A stretch of DNA of 50,414 bases from Craspedostauros australis (taxonomy: Eukaryota). The notes beneath the pieces were generated by a model. The model had not been told where the DNA came from, made no database searches, and saw nothing but the letters and a program-made list of their open reading frames with translations. Location of the stretch: assembly GCA_030167865.1 (NCBI GenBank), contig JALAGF010002776.1:1-50414 (forward strand). Direction: 5' to 3'. A program made the position numbers and the translations under genes. Shown in pieces: positions 13,301 through 30,839 of this stretch (within the stretch, counting starts at the first letter, position 1; the number at the start of each line of letters is the position of its first letter).

Positions 13301-14542
13301 GCTGCATCGGCGCCCGCAGCGGCAGCCACTTTATCTCTTGTCAAGGATGAGGCAGCAACGATGGACACGCGAACGAAAGGACCAATCAGCCCCCAGTCGT
13401 TCATGCAGCTGGAGCAGGCGATGTCCGATCAGGAGGAGGAACTGCGTCGGCTCGAAAGGGCGTGCAACAACAAGGACATCGAAATGCAAGATCTGGTGGA
13501 GGTGAATGACTGCATGCATGGTGAGAACCAAAAGCTCAAGACAGAGATTTCCAACCTCGAGAACGTGATCACGAAGTTGCAGACGGAGGTCGCGTTGAAG
13601 ACCGACGAAATCCGCGACCTTCGATTACTGGATCTGAAAGATGCCAATGAGATGATCGTTTGCCTGGAAGAGCAGATGCTCGAGCTCGAACTTGGTTGTC
13701 AGGAGAAGGAGTCCACCATCCAGAAACTCCGACAACAGCTCCAGCAAAGCCAGAAGAAGAAAGAGCAGATGGAGGAGGATATTGCCAGCACAACACTACC
13801 ACTGCCACCACCATCACGACGCAAGATCGGCTCCGATGCATCCATTGCCAACGAGAAGGGCGTGATGATTGCCTGTCTCGCGCAGCATCAGTCAGAGCTT
13901 GAGAGGGAGAAGATTGAGCTGAGGGGACAGCTGGATCAGGTAAAGAAGGTCGCACAGCAACTCAAAGACGAGAACAGCGCGCTCCAGGACGAATTGAAAC
14001 AAGTGATGGACGAATCGGAGGCGTGCATGAAGGAGTTGGAGGAGCAGCTTGAGACAGAACGCGCCAATGGCATGTTGTCCGCGAAAGAGCAACGAGAGAA
14101 GGTCAAAGAGTTGGAATCGATACTTGACCAACGCAGCACTCTGCTGGCTGACATGGTGAAGTACAACAAGGAGATACAATGCAAGTGGGATGCGGATCGA
14201 TTGAAGCTGTTGAAGCACGAGGAGGATGCTAAGGAAAATGGAGCGGCGTGTACCGCCCAAATATCCAATCTGCGGCAACAGCTGAAGAGCGTCGAAGGCA
14301 AGCACAGGCAGGAGATGGAGAGACGCGGTGAGCAATGCAGAATATTGGAAGCCGATCTTGCAAAGATCAAGGTGAAGGTGCGAGGATCTTCGGTCGATGA
14401 CAACAAGGTCGTAGCTGAGCTCCAAAAAGAGAACGGCAAGCTCAAGGACAAGATCAGCCGGCAGGAGGCCTACTTGCAACGCAAGTTACAGAAGGAGAAA
14501 GAGCAGAGGGGCCGCTCCCTTCGAAGCGCCCTGCCCAAATAA
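10301..14542 (+). CDS. Very large coiled-coil protein of unknown function (1413 aa) with Pro/Ser/Thr-rich N-terminal head
   Basis: Uninterrupted 4.2-kb ORF with heptad-rich sequence from about aa 200 to the C-terminus, broken by short linkers. No motor domain motifs seen. Confidence 0.9.
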   Translation: MIRKMKGFRKPMWMKQSKKAPASGTASASASTPALKPTPVAVMTPPTHPNTQPEDRSPIGMTVISKSPRTESRQPPSPRGNESRKDLPQPKKLLTSPSPEQMDAVKRNRRRVSFGDHQDRQIESRAPVTPDTPTKTPINEHEHDSTPKTAIDADEIASSNTQGHVNVNTNAYTQGKVNVNTNANTNTTIDHDNGRCTNSELKATLVERNREIRSMHDKFHAVQDGLLRIDEERDALMERTTSLEDESKALRRKLDVREQEILSLVKRCAAQELKVKELAKLRKHNRDLSESLHSVRNKLHDVEHEQDELEKLRKELRDSELSREELVSRLDVVQRDHDKLAETLSDCLSNMRRLTEEKELLQLEWQREVKQIAMQLERERIDHISANNDLKAELQRKNDKMAEAEQNLQKALNTNNDIRQTKVQVSQEHSKTVNDLKVELDEVMASVTANRQKINDVNNKNQHLEEELERTSSMLTSRTNSFEAKVHELNDDLHEKEIAFVALEIEFSDQMEELMRKSCQVDELLEEKAALEEKLADFNVISTKYAGLQEYMALFDSTVVDVTTENAYLTLEKETLHEEIAELENKIELLESITGIDHYQVQSDDMQPMGEDEDDDIDDDCARLNPDACEGMTNNHAHADKRSALHEQGSIQMMPDSGTGDLSDPQAATPVERRSPLDGNADQAEGMAELGIVSMETTIRQLEHRLRQQKEDHATALKKLEDEVEQLNQTKDEMSKELANTASLRERADDKVINLQAELSESNEMLASMTSTLSLRNDAMTHLNNELIAARELHDTMVVELSSTKHQLEESEGLVQKLQGQCAEADAARASQHRNLRNAIKEKETLQSTVDETRSCLTALKADLCAANQIIEEKARKEALLVALTAEKQGMEQTLCDANEQIDNLKEEIDRRSSDCANCMRELESRRLAEIATQESMEELRSLHETQQQSLKSELEAMRLHVGAVNATLAQKTDELAEMQKELAETKQELDKERRLKEAIAASAPAAAATLSLVKDEAATMDTRTKGPISPQSFMQLEQAMSDQEEELRRLERACNNKDIEMQDLVEVNDCMHGENQKLKTEISNLENVITKLQTEVALKTDEIRDLRLLDLKDANEMIVCLEEQMLELELGCQEKESTIQKLRQQLQQSQKKKEQMEEDIASTTLPLPPPSRRKIGSDASIANEKGVMIACLAQHQSELEREKIELRGQLDQVKKVAQQLKDENSALQDELKQVMDESEACMKELEEQLETERANGMLSAKEQREKVKELESILDQRSTLLADMVKYNKEIQCKWDADRLKLLKHEEDAKENGAACTAQISNLRQQLKSVEGKHRQEMERRGEQCRILEADLAKIKVKVRGSSVDDNKVVAELQKENGKLKDKISRQEAYLQRKLQKEKEQRGRSLRSALPK
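10779..10850 (+). repeat. In-frame 36-bp tandem duplication (TQG[H/K]VNVNTNA x2)
   Basis: ATACCCAGGGTCACGTGAATGTCAATACCAACGCCT followed by ATACCCAGGGCAAAGTGAATGTCAATACCAACGCCA. Confidence 0.9.
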
Positions 14543-15612
14543 GCCTAGATTCGTCGATTCTCTCCAGAGACAGAGAGCGAGAGTACACACTGTCGCTTTA
14601 GATTGGAGATGCTGTGCACATAGTTGTGGAATCATCCAGCGGTACCGCGCCAACCGGATTCTTTGGACAAATCATCTGAGCTCCAGCGAGATCGATGCGG
14701 CGTACTCTATGAATTCTCCCTCCATGTTGGCGACGACCGATTGCCAAGCATCTTCATACCTGTTGTTGAAGCATGTATGCGTTACCCGTAAACACCCCAG
14801 GACGGGAACATGCAAGAGAACATGGACTTTCACAACCGTGGTGGAATACCAGGGGCGGACGACTTGGTGCAGTCCAAACATCTAAGAAGAGAGCTTGACG
14901 AGCAAAAGAAGCAACCCACTGAGGAGTGTAGGTTTTGAACCTCATGGCTGACACATAGTTCCACGGAGCAAGTGCAAGAAGCCAGCGGTCAGCGATCCAT
15001 GACCTATGCCCGCCGTATACCCATATGCCTTCCTCCGAAGTGCTCCCAACTATGTTCGTTTGGCGGATGTCCCTGTCGGCCGCCATGGATCGAGCATCGG
15101 TCTGCTGCAATTCACGAGCCACGACGGGGGTGCCTCTACATCTGGTTTGAACGTAGATATTCGTGGTCTGCGCCCTACGATCAGTGAAGGCGACGCGATG
15201 CCGCTGCGCCTGTTGCTTTTCGTTGGTGTCGAACCATCCCAATGCGTCATACGGTGTTGGTTTAATGTTGATGGTGCTAGTTAGCTATGCTGAGCTTGAT
15301 CATCGCAATGCGACAGGATGGCAGCCTGTCGAATCAGAATGAGATGGATGGTCACCAACAAATCCAATCACATCGGTGGCTCCTGCGCGTACTATTGCCA
15401 ATAAACCAGATGTCCGAATGCCTGATTGGTATCGAGGAAATTCGAGGAAATTCAGAACCTGGTTCGTGAATTTCCTCGAGTGCAATACACACTCGTGAAT
15501 GGATGGTGTTGGCAATGCCGGACTGTCATGACCTATTTTTTAGCGACCATCCCAAAAGTTGGCCACATCGCCATCACCATCATGACTATCCTCCCTCCAC
15601 AAATCATCAATC

Positions 15613-17331
15613 ATGACGAAGTCCACGCCTGCCCCCATCCACCCACACCGCCTCCAATCTGAGAGTGATCTTTCACGAGCTGCTACGATGGAAGCTACCT
15701 CTCGAGATGATGGTACCGCACGAACAATGGACAGCACCCGCCAATCCGCGACTTTTCGAGACGATTCGACCAATCGCAACGATCACACTGGCAGCGACGC
15801 CGAGCCGGATACCACAGCCCGGATCCCCCTCCCAGGAAGATTCCATTCACCCAGGTTTAGCTCCGGTCAAGATGATCCCATCACTGTTGATAGCATTCTC
15901 GATGTCTTCTTCCCCAGGCAGATGTTGACGAAGATGTGCACACATACCAACAACCACATCCTCAACAGTGGTGTATCAGCAGCGCCGGTGGAGCCGAAAG
16001 ACCTCTATCTTTTCTTCGCCATCTACTACTACATGGGGTACATCGAGGGACCATCGAAGATTGACTACTGGAATCGGACCAGCCCCTTTTCGCCGAAACA
16101 TGCGCTGATGGAGCGCATGTCGTGGTCGCGGTTCCAGCTGATTTGGGACAATATTCATTTCACCTGTCTCCGCGACGCTGGCGATGCTGATACTGATACT
16201 GATGAAGCATCTGGCGTCTTCGACACCTCTGATTCAGTGGATGAAAATTTCGATTTCGATGATGAATGCTCACGTATGGGTGATTACTGGGGGCAAAGCT
16301 CCGACGACAGCGATAGCCTCGACGAAATCTCTAGCTCTCCCGAGGACGACGAGGAACCTGAAATCATTGCCACCATCAAGAGCTGGCTCCGGGAGATACA
16401 GCCGTTCCTGGACCACGTGAATGAAGTCTCGAAGCAACTCTGCAAGTTCCCTGGCTCCGAGTGTGCCGTCAATGAAATGATAGTCCGATTGACTCGCCAG
16501 TCGCGACAGGCCATCCGCATGGGGGAAGATCAAGCCAAGCACACCCACAAGTTCTACGGTCTCTGCTGCTCCACGACCGGCTTTGTGTACCACGTGCTAC
16601 CAGCCAGTGGCATGGATGGGATGGCAAACGCTGGCGGCACCATCCTCGACTTGCTGAGAACGCTGGATGATCAACACCAGTACGTTGTGGCTATGCAGAG
16701 ACGGCTCGCCACCACTACAGTGCTGCAGAAATCGAGGGAGATGAAGGTTGGCATAGTGGGGCCAGCACAAATGCAATACGGAGTTGCCATGGGCAAAAGT
16801 ACTCGTCTCATCAACTACTGCAGACCCGACCTCCGATGCAAAAGGCCGTGGGTACGAGTCATATTCCACCTGCTGGACATCATGAAGGCCAACGCCAAGA
16901 TTGCCTTCAGTGCTCTGGCAGAGAGGGATAACCAAACCGATCCGAATAGATTCTTGCAGAACATGATCGAGGCATTGGCCCGTAAAGCGGGCGCGCAAGA
17001 AGAGGCCACGAAGAAGCGAGGCTCCAACGAAGCAACGGTCCCAAGAGGCGTGAGGGTGCGACAGAGGTGCAGGATGAGCAGCACGAGGCCAAGTCTAGAC
17101 AACGCCAGATTCGAAGGCGATCCGTCAGACCACCTGCAAGTCATCAGTCAGGAGACGAGCCAAAGGGTGTGCAGGTACTGTGCCTATCTGAACGTCGTTG
17201 CGAAGAAGGAGGGCAAACAGGCCCCGAAACTGAGACGAGTGCGAAGGATGTGCATTGTGTGCAATGTCCACATATGCAAATCGCATTGGGACGATTATCA
17301 CAAAACGAGGATCCCTGAAGACAAAGAATGA
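15613..17331 (+). CDS. piggyBac transposase-derived protein (PGBD-like), catalytically inactive, with C-terminal Cys-rich zinc finger
   Basis: Intact 572-aa ORF with piggyBac blocks FFP..ML..MC..TN.H, LFFAIYYYMG...DYW, MSWSRFQLIWDNIHF, IQPFLDHVN...PG..CAV[N]EM, KFYGLC..TGF and R.KRPW..VIFHLLD...NA.I. The C-terminal domain reads CRYC...CIVCNVHIC..HW..YH. Confidence 0.85.
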   Translation: MTKSTPAPIHPHRLQSESDLSRAATMEATSRDDGTARTMDSTRQSATFRDDSTNRNDHTGSDAEPDTTARIPLPGRFHSPRFSSGQDDPITVDSILDVFFPRQMLTKMCTHTNNHILNSGVSAAPVEPKDLYLFFAIYYYMGYIEGPSKIDYWNRTSPFSPKHALMERMSWSRFQLIWDNIHFTCLRDAGDADTDTDEASGVFDTSDSVDENFDFDDECSRMGDYWGQSSDDSDSLDEISSSPEDDEEPEIIATIKSWLREIQPFLDHVNEVSKQLCKFPGSECAVNEMIVRLTRQSRQAIRMGEDQAKHTHKFYGLCCSTTGFVYHVLPASGMDGMANAGGTILDLLRTLDDQHQYVVAMQRRLATTTVLQKSREMKVGIVGPAQMQYGVAMGKSTRLINYCRPDLRCKRPWVRVIFHLLDIMKANAKIAFSALAERDNQTDPNRFLQNMIEALARKAGAQEEATKKRGSNEATVPRGVRVRQRCRMSSTRPSLDNARFEGDPSDHLQVISQETSQRVCRYCAYLNVVAKKEGKQAPKLRRVRRMCIVCNVHICKSHWDDYHKTRIPEDKE

Positions 17332-17797
17332 TTGTCGTGATGGTTGTACTCCTACGCATAATCCCAGCATGAGTGTTAATAGGTAAGTAAGAGTAGCGTA
17401 CATATAGTAAGAAAGTAGTGATGGAGTATATGCTAACATCCTCGAGAACAAGACAAACATTGAGCACTCATCGAGTAGATTCGATTCCGACATCTATGAA
17501 TGAAATTGGGTGTTCTTGTATTGGCAGTGCCCAATGATTATTAACAGCCACTACTGATGCAAAACTCACAAACTTACTTGTATCATCATAATACACACAA
17601 GTACTCTCTCTCTCTCGAACTCAAGGTTCTCCTGAGGCAGATCTTGTGTCATCCATCGTTTGTGAGTTTGAAGATATGACTATTAGAGTATTGCATTTGT
17701 CTTTTGTGTCCGCGTTGCGGTTGTACAGTACTGCGTTGCTGAAGGTATTACTCCACTCGATAATACCTGGCTGTGATTCTGTGTTGTGATTACATGA

Positions 17798-20715
17798 TCA
17801 GTAACCGGGACCACCCTGGTATGGTTGTTGGGCGTACTGCTGCTGTTGCGGTGGTGCCTGCTGGTGGTATTGCTGCTGCGGCGGTGGGGCACCTCCATAG
17901 TTGTTTGGTGGCGGTGCCTGTTGGTACTGTTGTTGCTGCTGTTGTTGCTGCTGCGGCGGCGGGGCACCTCCGTACTGGTTGCCCTGGTCGTACGCCTGCG
18001 GCTGCTGCTGGTGTTGCTGCGGCTGGCTTTGGCTGCGGCGACCATCGTACTGGTCCCTGCTGGCGTTGTTGCTCGTGCTGCGGGAGTATCCGCCGCCGCC
18101 ACCACGGTCACGCTGCTGGGCCAGCAGGACACGGCGGATGCCTTCGTGCACCGGCTTGAGGCGGGCGAGGTTGGGGGAAGAGATCTTGATCGGATTCCTG
18201 GCAACCGGAAGCACCACGATGTACTTCCATGGGTGGAGCTTGTTCTTGTACTTGACCATCTGCGGTCCCTGCCAGTCGTTCTGGATGCGCGCGCCCTGAA
18301 GGGAGAACTGCTTCACCTTCACGGACACGGGACGTCTGGCCTGGGTCTCGATGACGGCAATGTCGTACTCGGACTGTGGTCAGAAGAGAATGAAACAGCA
18401 CAAGATGGAACGTGACACAGGAAGCAAGCGGTATGTAGAGGAAGAGTGAATTGAAGAGGAATGGAACGGTGCCAAAGTAGAACATCAGAACGCGATGCGA
18501 TGAAGGTGAGTATTTGTGAATGTTGCGTCAGGAGTGTTGAAACGCGATGAGAAGGTGAATTTTTGCAGGCAACGGCGCAACCTCCTTGTTTTGCGGCCGA
18601 TCTGAATTGTCTGTGGCATCGTCGCCGTTACTTGATGATTGGTTTGGCTTGACTTACTTTGGAACGGTACATGTTGATCATCCACGGCTGGGCGATGATT
18701 CCTCCGATGACAACATACTTGGGCTTCCAGTCCTTGGCGCTGTTTGGCGCGTTGGTCTCCCTGGTGTCGTACTTCACCATGTGCTCACCCTCAGCGATGA
18801 CGACCTCAGCGTTGGGGACGTAGAAGAGGAGCGGCAATGGACGCGGTCCTTCCTTGATGAGACGGGATGCCTCCTTTGGATTGCGGACGTCCACACCGTT
18901 GACCTTCAGCAGGACGTGTCCCAGCTCGACTCCTGCGGATCTTGCGGAGGAACCTTCGACGATGAATGCGACGACTGGGCGGTCGGCAAGACCATCCACA
19001 ATCTGCTTCTCGGTGTTCAAGAAAAGGGAATCGGTGAGCTCCTGTGGCTTGAAGAACATGACACCGAGGGTCGGGGTGAAGATTCTGGCATCATACCACT
19101 CTCCGCCCGGAGGAAGTCCATCGTCCTTCTTCTCCCCACGCTCCTCGCGTGTGGTCTTGACCGGCTCGACGGCCTCTTGTGCTGGGACCGGTGGCTGCGA
19201 TGGGGCAGCGGAATCGAATCCCATGCTTGCGAAGAAGTCGTCATCGCTCTGCTGCACAGGTTGGAGCTGCAACTGCTGCTGCTGAGGTGGTTGCTGTGCC
19301 GGTGGAGCCTGCGCAGGCACGATTGCTCCCTGCGATTGACCTTCAAAGACGGAGAATGGGTCGGCAGCAGCTGGGGCCGCGAGGGCCTGCTGTGCCGGTG
19401 GCTGGCCGTATGGTTGACCGTACGGCTGCTGCTGCTGATACTGTCCCGGGACCTGCGCATACGGCTGGTTTGGCTGCTGCGATGGAACCAACGCACCGAG
19501 GCTTGGGTCCGCTGGCGGTGCTGAAGCCGCCGGTGATGGCTGCTGCGGTGCGCCCCATGGATCGGCGTATGGCGCTGGTGCCCCCGGTGGTGGAGTTCCC
19601 TGGGCCAGTTGAGCTGCGTCTGACTGCGGAGCTGCACCTGGTGCCATGAGTGCTGGGAAGCCGGCCTGTGGAGGTGCGGGTGCGCCCTGCGGAGGTGGTG
19701 GTGGGTTGGACGGCGGCATTCCGAAGGCCCCGGCCACTGGATCGTTGGCTGGTGGAAACATGCCAGGGGCGGGTGCGCCCGGTGTTGGAGCGCCGTAGGG
19801 GTTGGCGCCTCCGAACTGGTCGGCAGGCGGTTGGGCTGGCTGGACCGGTGGAGCAGGTGCGGGAGCTGGTGCTCCGAAGCCTCCGAAAGGATCCGCGGAT
19901 GCTGCTGGCTGTGGGGGCGCTGGAGCTGGCGGCGGGGCTTGGTTGTTCATCATTGGCTGGCCATGAGCAGGGGCAGGTGCTCCGAAACCTCCGAATGGAT
20001 CAGCGGCTCCAGTCGATACTTGTGGTGTTGGTGCGGGTGGGGCCATGCCCGGCATGGTTGGTGCGGCCGGTGGCATGGCAGGTGGCTGCTGGCCTGGTGG
20101 GGCTCCGTAGGATGGCGTTGGGGTAGGAGGTGCGCCGAGAGCATCAGCGCCGCCAACGGACATACCAGGTCCAGCCGACATCTGCGGAGGCTGTGGTGGC
20201 ATGCCCATCTGCTGCGGTGGCAGCTGTTGCTGCGGAGCACCGAATCCCATGCCGTTGCTGGCATTGTCGAAGCCAAAGGCACCGCCATTGGCCTGGGGTG
20301 CTCCGTACATGCCTGGCTGTTGCATGCCTGGCTGTTGCATACCTGACTGTTGCATACCTGGCTGTTGCATACCTGGCTGCTGCATGCCCATCTGTGGTTG
20401 GCCACCCATCTGAGGCTGGCCCATTGGTGGCTGCTGCATGCCCATTGGCGGCTGCTGCATGCCCATTTGAGGTTGGCCGCCCATTGGTGGCTGGCCCATG
20501 GGTGCGGCGCCATAGCCATTGCTCATCATCGCAGGAGGGGCGTTCATGACGGGCTTGTCGGATGGAGCCGGTGCCGGAGCGGGCGGTTGGCCAAGACCGT
20601 TGGCGAATGGGTTGCTGGGGTCGGCACCTGGTGCAGCCGGTGGTGGTGCCCCAGGTGCGCCGGCTGGCAGAGCAGCCTGGAAGTCGGCCGCGAACTGATC
20701 GAATGGATTCGCCAT
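17798..20715 (-). CDS. Pro/Gln/Gly/Met-rich protein with PDZ domain and PH-like domain, 2 exons
   Basis: Exons 20715-18658 and 18373-17798 (phase-0 intron GTAAGT...CACAG). PDZ: LGVMF...VVAFIVEGSSARSAGVELGHVLLKVNGVDV...EASRLIKEGPRPL. PH-like: VIAEGEHMVKY...WKPKYVVI...INMYRSK...EGIRRVL. Q-rich tail. Confidence 0.85.
20311..20385 (-). repeat. Coding 15-bp tandem repeat x5 (MQQPG / MQQSG)
   Basis: Units such as GCCTGGCTGTTGCAT repeated five times on the + strand. Confidence 0.9.
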
Positions 20716-21705
20716 GGTGTTGTTAATCTGTGTGCTTGGTTCCCAAGGTGCTTGGCGGTTGTTGGTCACTTGTTTTGGCCGTTGCGATTCTGCTGGGAGC
20801 TGTGGGGCGTTCTTTGAGGTTCTTGTTGCTCCGTCCGTGCTGGTGTGGGTGGATACAGCTCCTCTGCTCGTTCTCTCACGGCAGGAACAGCGGGAGTCAG
20901 AGCAAGATGAGAATGATGCTCAGGCTGGTGCTGCGACTGGTGTTGCCGAAATGATGGATTGCGCACGATCGATTGTTCGGATAATCGATGCGTAAAACCA
21001 CGAGTATGTTGTGTTTTACTCTCCTCTGTGCGAATGCTGATGGCAATGATGGATTATGGGCGTGACAGCTGCCTCCGAATTGTTTCGTTTGTTTTTGTTT
21101 TGTCTTGCTTCATGTCGTGTCGTGTTGTGCTGCGCTCTGCAGTACCGCGCTGTGCTGTGTTCTGCTCTGTGTTCTGCTACCAGCACATCGCGTAAAGGGT
21201 GAATGTGGATTGCTGCAGTGTGGCGCGCTGTGTGTTCGCTTCCGGGAATGCAATCTTTTCGTGTGGCGCAACGTGATCTTTGCCCGGATCGCCACAAAAC
21301 GTCACAAAGATAGGTCGTGTGGTACGCTGTTTACGCGCGCTGTTGCGCATCTTCGCTCTGTGTGTTGACTCAGACCAGTTACTACGGCAGTTCGAAGCAG
21401 TGCGCGCAGGATGTGCGCGATGTTGTTGGAGGCACATCACAACACAGCGATGTGAGCCAAGCGGCCTTTTCCTGTCCAACGGATCGATTTTGCACAGAGA
21501 GTATTATTGTATCGAAGCTTGAATAACTATCCATGATTGTGACCATGTGGGAAGACAGCGTGTCCGCCATTGGTACGAGCCAACGGGCGTAAAATTCAGA
21601 AAAATGTTGTCACGTTGAGTTTGCCAAAATTGGGTCACGGATGAGACAAATCGTGCGTAAGTTAGTCTGGGGAGATTGTTAGGAGAGTTGGGCAGAGCAG
21701 GCAGG

Positions 21706-29132: not shown

Positions 29133-30839
29133 CTAGGAGTTCATGGTGAAATTGAAGCGAGACTCCATGCTTACTGCAGGTTTGTTGCGGCGCCGGTACC
29201 GTGGATTGAACCGTTTGCGTCCAAACGTGTGCATCTTGGTGCTCTCACGATTGTCCTTCAAAGGATTGTTCAGAAACTCCAGCACATGCTCAAACTCCTT
29301 CGGCCGTTCGACGTCAGGGAGATGGACAAGGAGCTTGTGCTGAACGAGGTACTCAAAGCTCAATTCGCCTGCCGCAAATGATGTCGATTGGTTGTGCGAC
29401 AAGGAGTAGTGTGGTGTTGTGGGATCATCACGGAACAACCACGACTCCGAACTTTGATGACATGACATGCTCGTGCCATCCGTGGAGACTTCGCAAAACT
29501 CCGGATGACCATCCTCGGCTGTCGTCGTTCCTGTTGCTGCCGCTGCTGACAAGTCTGCACGCTGGAATACCAGCGACAACGGGAGGCTCTGAGTAAAAGC
29601 CGAATGGCGTGCTGCGATGACGACATCCGTATGGCCCAGGATGATCATGTCAGACAGCATGGCCTGCCAACCCTTCAGACACTTCTGCCCAGCACCCTTC
29701 CATGCCGTGAAGCTCACGCCCTGATCGGCCTCCACTCTGATTTGCGGGAACAAGATCACTGGCACCTGAGCCTTGTCTTTGAGCTGCTGCTTCACGGCCG
29801 CTATTCTCGCCGGCGCATCTGTAGCGAGAAAAACGACGACTGACTTGCGTGATGACTTTTGCGATTGATCACCGGCAGTCGTGCTCATGTCAGTGCGTCG
29901 GTTGCGTATCATGCTGGCGATCAGACTGGTTAAATTAGCAACAAATTCGGTTTCATTCGCGATCTGCCTACCCGCCTCTTGAAAGTGATCTTGCTCTCCG
30001 TTGCCAAGACGCAGATGCAGCCCGATCACCACGTGATTGCGAAACCCGTTCTCTTCCATGAAGTCATCGATGGAGTCGCGGAATCGAAACATCGTCTCGA
30101 TCCTTCGATAGAAGGCAGCATCCGATCGCAGCTTGCTCCCAAAGGGACCATCTCTGGTGGATTTGTATGTCGCATTCAACGGAACACCGAAATCCTTCAG
30201 GCTCTGGCCTGGAACGTAACCGTACACATCGTTGCGCACACGAACCTGCTTTTCGATATCATCCCTGTGATTGCGCCTCCCGTGCTGCCCCTGCCCATCA
30301 GCACGAGCCGCGTCATGAAGCGGTCTCTCCCTCATGCTAATACTACCCGAAGTACTGCCCAAGCTGGGTTGGGGAAGGTCCCATTCGCTGGTCTCGAAGA
30401 GATACTCGAAGATGTCAGGCCCCGTGGCGTGGTCCTCCCCGCACGTCCCCCATCTGAACTTGACCGTCGTCATACCGAGCGCTTGCCCGAGATGCCAGGC
30501 CGAACTTGCTCGCAGCAGACGGTGACCCAACCCGTAGATGCCGACATGGATGAGGCGACTCTTGTCTCTTCTGACGGGCATTCCATCGGCATCCAAGCCT
30601 TGACTTCCAGCACTTGTCTCGCCATCCGTTCGTGCAGTCCACCCATCGACTTCTGGTTCCGCCCCTGCTTTTGGTGCTGTCGCCGCCAGGAGAGAAGACT
30701 CAGCATCAAAACCATGACCATCACTTTCGTCTTCAGACTGTGCCAGGATTGTCCGCAACAGAGATATGCTTGTCTGGGTTGACACAACGCAGAGTGTTGT
30801 CAGCATCAACAACAGCGGCACATTACGGCGCCGTCCCAT
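29133..30839 (-). CDS. Type II membrane fucosyltransferase-like glycosyltransferase (GT23/NodZ-like fold)
   Basis: 568-aa ORF with a short basic N-terminus plus hydrophobic anchor. Motifs YGLGHRL, VIGLHLRLGN (motif I, HxR), VFLATD (motif II) and DMIILGHTDVVIAARHSAFT (motif III). Confidence 0.7.
   Translation of the reverse strand: MGRRRNVPLLLMLTTLCVVSTQTSISLLRTILAQSEDESDGHGFDAESSLLAATAPKAGAEPEVDGWTARTDGETSAGSQGLDADGMPVRRDKSRLIHVGIYGLGHRLLRASSAWHLGQALGMTTVKFRWGTCGEDHATGPDIFEYLFETSEWDLPQPSLGSTSGSISMRERPLHDAARADGQGQHGRRNHRDDIEKQVRVRNDVYGYVPGQSLKDFGVPLNATYKSTRDGPFGSKLRSDAAFYRRIETMFRFRDSIDDFMEENGFRNHVVIGLHLRLGNGEQDHFQEAGRQIANETEFVANLTSLIASMIRNRRTDMSTTAGDQSQKSSRKSVVVFLATDAPARIAAVKQQLKDKAQVPVILFPQIRVEADQGVSFTAWKGAGQKCLKGWQAMLSDMIILGHTDVVIAARHSAFTQSLPLSLVFQRADLSAAAATGTTTAEDGHPEFCEVSTDGTSMSCHQSSESWLFRDDPTTPHYSLSHNQSTSFAAGELSFEYLVQHKLLVHLPDVERPKEFEHVLEFLNNPLKDNRESTKMHTFGRKRFNPRYRRRNKPAVSMESRFNFTMNS

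Follow-up and report, generated by a model that had tools for sequence, protein, structure and literature searches.

Has a transposase gene that no longer encodes the residues for cutting DNA been kept by its host, or is it a relic whose reading frame happens still to be open? This question is raised by one open reading frame (ORF) in a 50,414-nucleotide stretch of DNA from Craspedostauros australis (contig JALAGF010002776.1, positions 1 to 50,414; hereafter the window), which encodes a piggyBac-related protein that we label P0001. On balance, we think it probable that P0001 descends from a piggyBac transposase and has been retained (exapted) by its host as a nuclease-dead DNA-binding protein that is probably dimeric. 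The ORF itself is the following.

15613..17331, plus strand: complete P0001 ORF, piggyBac-derived, with its stop codon at 17329-17331 and a match to PF13843.

As the original prediction had it, this ORF is unbroken over 572 amino acids, and since an in-frame stop lies at 15583, 9 codons 5′ of the P0001 ATG, the ORF is complete unless there is an upstream exon. P0001 matched the Pfam profile PF13843 (DDE_Tnp_1_7, the piggyBac transposase family) with 90.7 bits (E=1.5e-25), compared to a curated cut-off of 22.4, and a language-model search for look-alikes of P0001 returned piggyBac clusters and nothing else. P0001 by itself found no match at E<=1 among PDB sequences (phmmer); only family profiles, in which P0001 was included, matched piggyBat 9c0f (1e-43) and Trichoplusia ni (T. 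ni) piggyBac 6x67 (1.6e-28). Thus, P0001 is a member of the piggyBac superfamily by its Pfam profile, by the profile matches to solved transposases and by its fold. A tblastn search found no second copy of P0001 in the window. The ORF of similar length at 29136..30839 (minus strand) was considered as a relative of P0001 and rejected, as it is NodZ-like.

Searched exhaustively with HMMER, 1.84 billion representative proteins yielded 391 relatives of P0001 at E<=0.001; a word-based protein search at near lengths yielded nothing at the same threshold. Environmental and transcriptome-type sources supplied these proteins, which are either nameless or called ‘Transposase IS4’; the closest, P0002 (606 aa), is 34% identical to P0001, and many of the alignments are interrupted at about P0001 residue 390. 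From 150 listed matches we took 49 relatives of at least 300 aa and aligned them with P0001 (alignment A3). The catalytic columns of A3 aligned with the LTIDEQ, ITCDNWF and GGVDTLDQ motifs of T. ni piggyBac, which placed the following positions in P0001.

16471..16473, plus strand: catalytic site 1, N287 (in CAVNE), where the family has Asp (D in 36/40 filled rows).
16696..16698, plus strand: catalytic site 2, Q362 (in VAMQRR), where the family has Asp in MDNYFT (D in 43/47 filled rows).
16780..16785, plus strand: deletion junction G390/V391, at which P0001 alone leaves alignment columns 775-880 empty.
16792..16794, plus strand: catalytic site 3, G394, where the family has Asp in GVDxxDQ (D in 35/38 filled rows).
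16801..16803, plus strand: fourth conserved Asp column, T397 (D in 33/39 filled rows).

All three catalytic Asp residues are therefore lost in the alignment, as had been claimed, and the Asn of CAVNE and the Gln of VAMQRR both occupy family Asp columns. The third site had been assigned to the Thr at 16801-16803, but this residue, T397, belongs to the column of the fourth conserved Asp; the residue at site 3 is G394. With this correction the spacing between sites 2 and 3 becomes 32, not the 35 given originally, and the spacing of 75 between sites 1 and 2 is unchanged. Among 28 relatives the site 2-3 spacing has a median of 124 (range 118-127), such that P0001 is short by about 92 residues relative to its closest family and by about 69 relative to T. 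ni piggyBac. The motifs around the sites are degenerate as well: DEMM reads NEMI, MDNYFT reads MQRRLA, and GTAR reads GPAQ.

The missing stretch comprises the insertion domain together with about 10 residues that precede the third Asp (the DDYNxWM segment), with the GTAR-like strand on one side and the DDYNxWMxGVD helix on the other. Of the 38 conserved columns in the insertion-domain part, P0001 fills none (0/38). Thus the earlier description of an in-frame loss that takes away the insertion domain is right, but its size, put at about 65 residues, was too low by either comparison. No other relative among the matches listed carries this deletion. P0101, which was considered as a protein that might share it, was ruled out, as its alignment runs on into the insertion domain (GWPPKEYK). 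Both the D-D-D triad of an active transposase (D268, D346 and D447 in T. ni piggyBac) and the insertion domain are absent from P0001.

We then considered what is left of the protein, which divides into six parts.

15613..15840, plus strand: N-terminal tail, aa 1-76, predicted to be disordered (predicted local distance difference test, pLDDT, below 50 at residues 1-70).
15841..16194, plus strand: N-terminal helical domain, aa 77-194, with the block YYMG..P.K.DYW..P.H (pLDDT 89-98), holding predicted homodimer interface residues 140-165.
16195..16353, plus strand: acidic low-complexity loop, aa 195-247, predicted to be disordered (pLDDT below 50).
16354..16782, plus strand: degenerate RNase H-like core, aa 248-390, with strands 1-5 and two helices in the predicted secondary structure (27/60 consensus residues).
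16783..17037, plus strand: C-terminal helical part, aa 391-475, with helices at 412-435 and 444-473, holding predicted interface residues 445-456.
17038..17328, plus strand: linker and Cys-rich C-terminal domain (CRD), aa 476-572, defined by its ligand columns and aligning with the piggyBat CRD.

An AlphaFold2 model built on A3 had a mean pLDDT of 76.6 and a predicted template modelling score (pTM) of 0.70, with low confidence confined to residues 1-70 and to the acidic loop (195-243), a stretch that has an equivalent in relatives (columns ~350-440 of alignment A1). In the model, strands 1-5 and the RNase H-like helices are kept, and strand 5 (379-382) runs straight into the third-Asp helix (395-401). 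The superposition on the piggyBac structure that had been proposed as a check recovered the piggyBac core fold: residues 78-470 of the model aligned with residues 117-524 of 6x67_C (VIA Z 29.8, root-mean-square deviation 3.4 A over 322 residues), and residues 71-567, in which the C-terminal domain is included, superposed on piggyBat 9c0f_C. Foldseek gave values of 2.9e-13 and 1.1e-10, with a probability of 1.00. The CRD was modelled with high confidence (pLDDT 87-97 at residues 491-560), and its predicted Zn ligands, H507, C520, C523, C547, C550, C555, H558 and H563, all fall in conserved columns that hold Cys or His in P0001. Judged from these ligand columns and from the retention of consensus residues, both the N-terminal dimerisation and DNA-binding part and the Cys-rich domain are retained and still conserved, in agreement with the earlier claim.

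The protein is also predicted to pair with itself. For residues 77-572, the interface score ipSAE (interaction prediction score from aligned errors) of the homodimer was 0.48 (0.50, 0.48 and 0.45 in three runs), compared to 0.00 for the best of 3 controls; the mark applied to this score is reached by 21/30 proteins solved as same-chain pairs and by 0/23 proteins solved as single chains. The runs shared at least 40% of their contacts, the pLDDT of the partner was at least 69, and the predicted interface is formed by residues 140-165 and 445-456. Since piggyBac dimers have already been solved, we take this pass as likeness to them, not as binding.

If P0001 were the transposase of a resident element, transposon ends might flank it. 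The statement that TTAA-CCC/GGG-TTAA ends are absent was upheld: TTAACCC does not occur anywhere in the window, and no terminal inverted repeats (TIRs) flank P0001. Three TTAA sites lie in the flanks (one upstream and two downstream), and the 16-mers adjacent to them are complementary at 8/16 and 7/16 positions. The sole flank-to-flank pair, an inverted 15-nt AG/CT pair at 14572-14586/17601-17615, was considered as a set of ends; it is 93% complementary, but it is of low complexity, adjoins no TTAA and does not extend inward, and we judged it to be due to chance. Thus, with no transposon ends around the gene, P0001 is not carried by an element.

Has this dead, stranded gene been under selection? 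The alternative is that P0001 is an immobilised piggyBac relic in the course of decay, whose frame is open by chance or through recent inactivation and which has no function. We consider this unlikely, although it is not negligible. As no orthologue DNA was found for a ratio of nonsynonymous to synonymous substitution (dN/dS), selection was probed by three indirect tests. In the first, a test for mosaic conservation, we took the columns with at least 60% agreement among relatives with an intact D-D-D triad and counted the consensus residues kept in P0001. Intact members retain on average 0.78-0.86 of the consensus in every part. P0001 keeps 22/28 consensus residues in the N-terminal helical domain (intact members, mean 0.78) and 17/22 in the CRD (mean 0.83), compared to 27/60 in the first part of the core (mean 0.81, minimum 0.70) and 13/29 in the third-Asp helices (mean 0.78, minimum 0.50). 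The difference between the N-terminal domain and CRD together (39/50) and the core parts (40/89) was significant (Fisher test, p=1.7e-4). A relic is expected to decay uniformly, yet the two domains are conserved as in intact members and the core is not; this mosaic pattern counts against neutral decay, since decay would not spare two domains.

The other two tests concern the reading frame and its composition. We simulated point substitutions, without insertions or deletions, on the P0001 ORF itself, and found that 0.6% of simulated ORFs remained free of stop codons at 0.1 substitutions per site and 0/4000 at 0.2, a divergence that corresponds to 34% amino-acid change. In the P0001 core, about 44% of the conserved residues are gone; when the simulated divergence was as large as that of the core, no ORF stayed open even in the absence of indels. 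The G+C content at the three codon positions of P0001 (GC1/2/3 = 0.537/0.442/0.645), its observed/expected CpG ratio (CpG o/e, 0.90) and a codon adaptation index-like value (CAI-like, 0.727) are all within the ranges set by 10 ORFs nearby. Each folded part, the degenerate core included, has a GC3 of 0.66-0.69, as in host genes and unlike the flanks, in which GC is 0.51 and 0.40. Finally, the deletion is exactly in frame and the fold is still well predicted, neither of which fits decay. Mosaic conservation, survival of the ORF and host-like codon-position composition argue for selection on a non-catalytic protein.

The same combination of an open frame and a dead site is seen elsewhere in the family. 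Full-length relatives with replaced catalytic residues are P0009/P0154 (618 aa; E/S/R at the three sites), P0002 (G/E/D) and P0005 (610 aa; S/N/V). The mosaic is stronger in P0009 than in P0001, with 27/30 consensus residues kept in the N-terminal domain, 20/22 in the CRD and 17/60 in the core (p=9e-10), and P0009/P0154 sit on contigs of up to 50.9 kb. With dead sites in 4/40 rows, loss of catalysis with the ORF kept may be something that recurs in this family.

Several observations nonetheless weigh against host retention, and some of them are what a relic would lead one to expect. Nothing among the 1.84 billion representatives exceeds 34% identity to P0001 and no orthologue was found there; a scan of metagenome contigs gave 3 short loci at 27-38% identity and again no orthologue. 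A quick tree, built from 32 rows with at least 450 aa, gave P0001 a long end branch (1.78, compared to a median of 0.88). The exact P0001 sequence is not in a collection of 15 billion proteins, and no near-identical fragment of it appeared in the search of the representatives; 3/8 neighbouring ORFs are exactly present in the protein collection (sources mmetsp, eukprot, UniRef and JGI/IMG), which may mean that expression of P0001 is low or absent in the transcriptome-derived sources. A relic would also be in keeping with the piggyBac-like elements reported as annotated repeats in diatoms (PMC5859163, PMC9998398, PMC2806351), of which P. tricornutum is given 65-116 (PMC5859163, PMC2806351). With respect to the tests themselves, the mosaic result depends on one alignment (A3) and on thresholds chosen by the analyst, and the dimer score, for which the alignment was unused, may reflect a memory of the solved piggyBac and piggyBat dimers in the prediction model.

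The trees do not help the case for retention. In the quick full-length tree, P0001 grouped with P0002 and P0009/P0154 (Shimodaira-Hasegawa-like approximate likelihood ratio test, SH-aLRT, 94; not starred). We made a more careful tree from the 17/50 A3 rows with both ends filled, dropping the catalytic columns (309 columns); this tree did not resolve the relationships, and in 0% of bootstrap trees did the dead proteins come together as a single group. A common origin of the dead-site proteins was therefore set aside, since the grouping disappears without the catalytic columns and may be a long-branch artefact. Thus an old, shared domestication is not supported.

With these points counted, we still favour the reading of P0001 as a host-exapted DNA-binding protein. 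The original prediction of such a protein holds with respect to the dead site, the deletion, the kept DNA-binding parts, the absence of ends and the signals of selection; it is weakened by the missing orthologue. We propose that, from an ancestral piggyBac-type transposase, replacement of the triad and in-frame removal of the insertion domain would have led to a protein unable to cut DNA. According to the model, this protein would fold into an RNase H-like scaffold that lacks an active site, and it may pair through the helical domain by way of residues 140-165 and 445-456. In solved piggyBat and piggyBac complexes, the CRDs of the dimer are reported to read a palindromic motif and the core a second motif of the transposon end (PMC11707139). 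The DNA-binding reading follows from the fact that P0001 keeps exactly the parts that read transposon ends in those complexes: by analogy, its Cys-rich domain and helical core may bind specific DNA. The likely targets would be sequences descended from the ends of the ancestral transposon family, and the likely output would be tethering, repression or regulation at the target sites, not cleavage.

The kept parts might also serve in more specific roles. P0001 might be an architectural partner of an active piggyBac-type protein encoded elsewhere in the genome, as PgmL proteins are for PiggyMac (Pgm) in Paramecium, and would then assist in placing or restraining that enzyme on DNA. Loss of the catalytic site with retention of the predicted pairing surface and the DNA-binding parts is consistent with such a role, and relatives with an intact D-D-D triad are abundant in environmental data (36/40 rows). 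However, the window contains no active piggyBac-type gene, and the literature passages that our searches returned make no mention of programmed DNA elimination for diatoms; we regard a partner role as rather doubtful. A second possibility, which we hold to be improbable, is that P0001 is a repressor of transposition, serving itself or the host, that competes for the ends or poisons the oligomers of active transposases of its own family. This too is in line with the kept pairing surface and DNA-binding parts, and the CRD and core are the parts described as reading end motifs in the solved complexes (PMC11707139). Against it, a repressor requires that the genome also contain a cognate element that is still live, the nearest relative is 34% identical and so leaves no close cognate family visible, and, as there are no transposon ends around P0001, the repressor would not be element-borne.

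A more elaborate version of the partner role, which we rate as very improbable, has P0001 as a dead scaffold without an insertion domain which, paired with an active piggyBac-type enzyme, steers or limits DNA excision, within the multi-protein piggyBac-derived machinery of a photosynthetic protist of the stramenopile-alveolate-rhizarian (SAR) group. If true, it would be the counterpart in a free-living alga of the ciliate Pgm/PgmL system, and would indicate regulated DNA rearrangement or dedicated policing of transposons outside ciliates. Least credible of all is a P0001 that is still a nuclease or recombinase, with acidic residues elsewhere taking over catalysis along the lines of the activity from distinct Asp residues claimed for human PGBD5 (PMC5381638): E288, beside site 1, is kept, but the three Asp columns and the fourth are all non-acidic in P0001 (N, Q, G and T), the motifs around the sites are degenerate, and the insertion domain is gone.

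Leaving these roles aside and returning to the locus around the exapted gene that we propose, we found that P0001 sits among ordinary eukaryotic genes, comprising a 1413-aa coiled-coil ORF and genes for a PDZ protein, an RRP12-like protein, symplekin, a sulfotransferase and an SDR protein. The following features flank the ORF.

15432..15479, no strand assigned: 12-mer TCGAGGAAATTC in three exact copies (two overlapping direct, one inverted), a palindrome capable of forming a hairpin (DNA fold z = -6.0).
17236..17398, no strand assigned: contig of 166 nt from the public run X1, identical to the window (depth 6.5), spanning the final 96 nt of the ORF plus 67 nt past its end; it is uninformative as to strand.
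17798..18259, minus strand: small Q/G-rich ORF immediately downstream of P0001, probably extending to ~18400, with no Pfam match.
18628..20715, minus strand: PDZ gene, beyond the small Q/G-rich ORF.

The PDZ gene had been placed next to P0001; it does lie downstream, but the small ORF intervenes. The small ORFs in the flanks gave no Pfam match; they include a stop-to-stop frame of 176 codons at 14754-15284 (minus strand), in the 1.07-kb stretch upstream of P0001. The C-terminal half of the downstream small ORF is of Q/G/P-rich low complexity. Within the PDZ ORF, G+C at 19000-21000 is 0.62-0.65, compared to ~0.50-0.57 elsewhere, and the ORF has a GC1 of 0.738 and a CpG o/e of 0.74.

The TCGAGGAAATTC palindrome lies 135-180 bp upstream of the P0001 ATG, and the window contains no further exact copy of the 12-mer. 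The palindrome might be part of a promoter; CRDs of piggyBac-type dimers read palindromes, but nothing links the two here. With respect to transcripts, the public run X1, whose RNA nature is a guess, shared 7% of words, and within 14400-18800 it held contigs identical to the window at 14400-14566, 17236-17398 and 17632-17987. The last of these is the deepest (depth 35) and overlies the 3′ end of the small downstream ORF. Each of the three contigs lies at a 3′ end, the first at that of the upstream gene, the second at that of the P0001 ORF and the third at that of the downstream minus-strand gene, a pattern that resembles transcript ends and gives a weak hint of transcription; the contig at 17236-17398 could instead be a long 3′ untranslated region of the downstream minus-strand gene. 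The remainder of the P0001 ORF was uncovered, which is uninformative.

What would an exapted P0001 add to what is known? Exaptation of piggyBac transposases has been documented for vertebrates, Xenopus and ciliates (PMC5381638), and the word ‘diatom’ does not occur in that paper. Our literature searches on piggyBac or PGBD together with diatoms, stramenopiles or Phaeodactylum returned no description of an exapted piggyBac gene from diatoms or stramenopiles (supplements not covered), in line with the earlier remark that none was known from diatoms. If selection on P0001 is confirmed, a marine protist lineage joins those with an exapted piggyBac. The protein would then also be a natural minimal version, with the piggyBac scaffold and the DNA-binding parts but neither an active site nor an insertion domain, and as such useful for asking what these parts do alone.

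Set against the canonical transposases, T. ni piggyBac (6x67/6x68) and piggyBat (9c0f), P0001 shares the fold and the order of domains (disordered N-terminus, helical domain, RNase H-like core and CRD), and the spacing of its Zn ligands aligns with that of the piggyBat-type CRD. It differs from them in having no D-D-D triad, insertion domain, TIRs or TTAA-flanked ends, and in carrying, together with its marine relatives, an acidic loop that joins the N-terminal domain to the core.

Among exapted genes, PGBD1 and PGBD2 are described as having no conserved DDD, as being under purifying selection and as having presumably switched to a host function that is unknown (PMC5381638). Like P0001, they are reported to be transposase-derived ORFs with neither transposon ends nor the triad. 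In contrast to P0001, for which no orthologue was found, they have mammal-wide orthologues with nonsynonymous-to-synonymous ratios (Ka/Ks) of 0.12-0.43 (PMC5381638), and PGBD1 is described as lacking the CRD that P0001 keeps (PMC11707139). PgmL1-5 of Paramecium are likewise piggyBac-derived and, by the account in PMC6143343, are kept despite having no conserved catalytic site; they act with active PiggyMac in programmed DNA elimination, and their likeness to P0001 is at the level of the superfamily. The nearest parallels in the family, P0009/P0154, P0002 and P0005, are like P0001 full-length ORFs with residues other than Asp at catalytic columns, but they are at most 34% identical to it and, unlike P0001, keep the insertion domain. 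Thus, catalytically degenerate host genes derived from piggyBac are already known, and the particular feature of P0001 is that its insertion domain has been lost cleanly.

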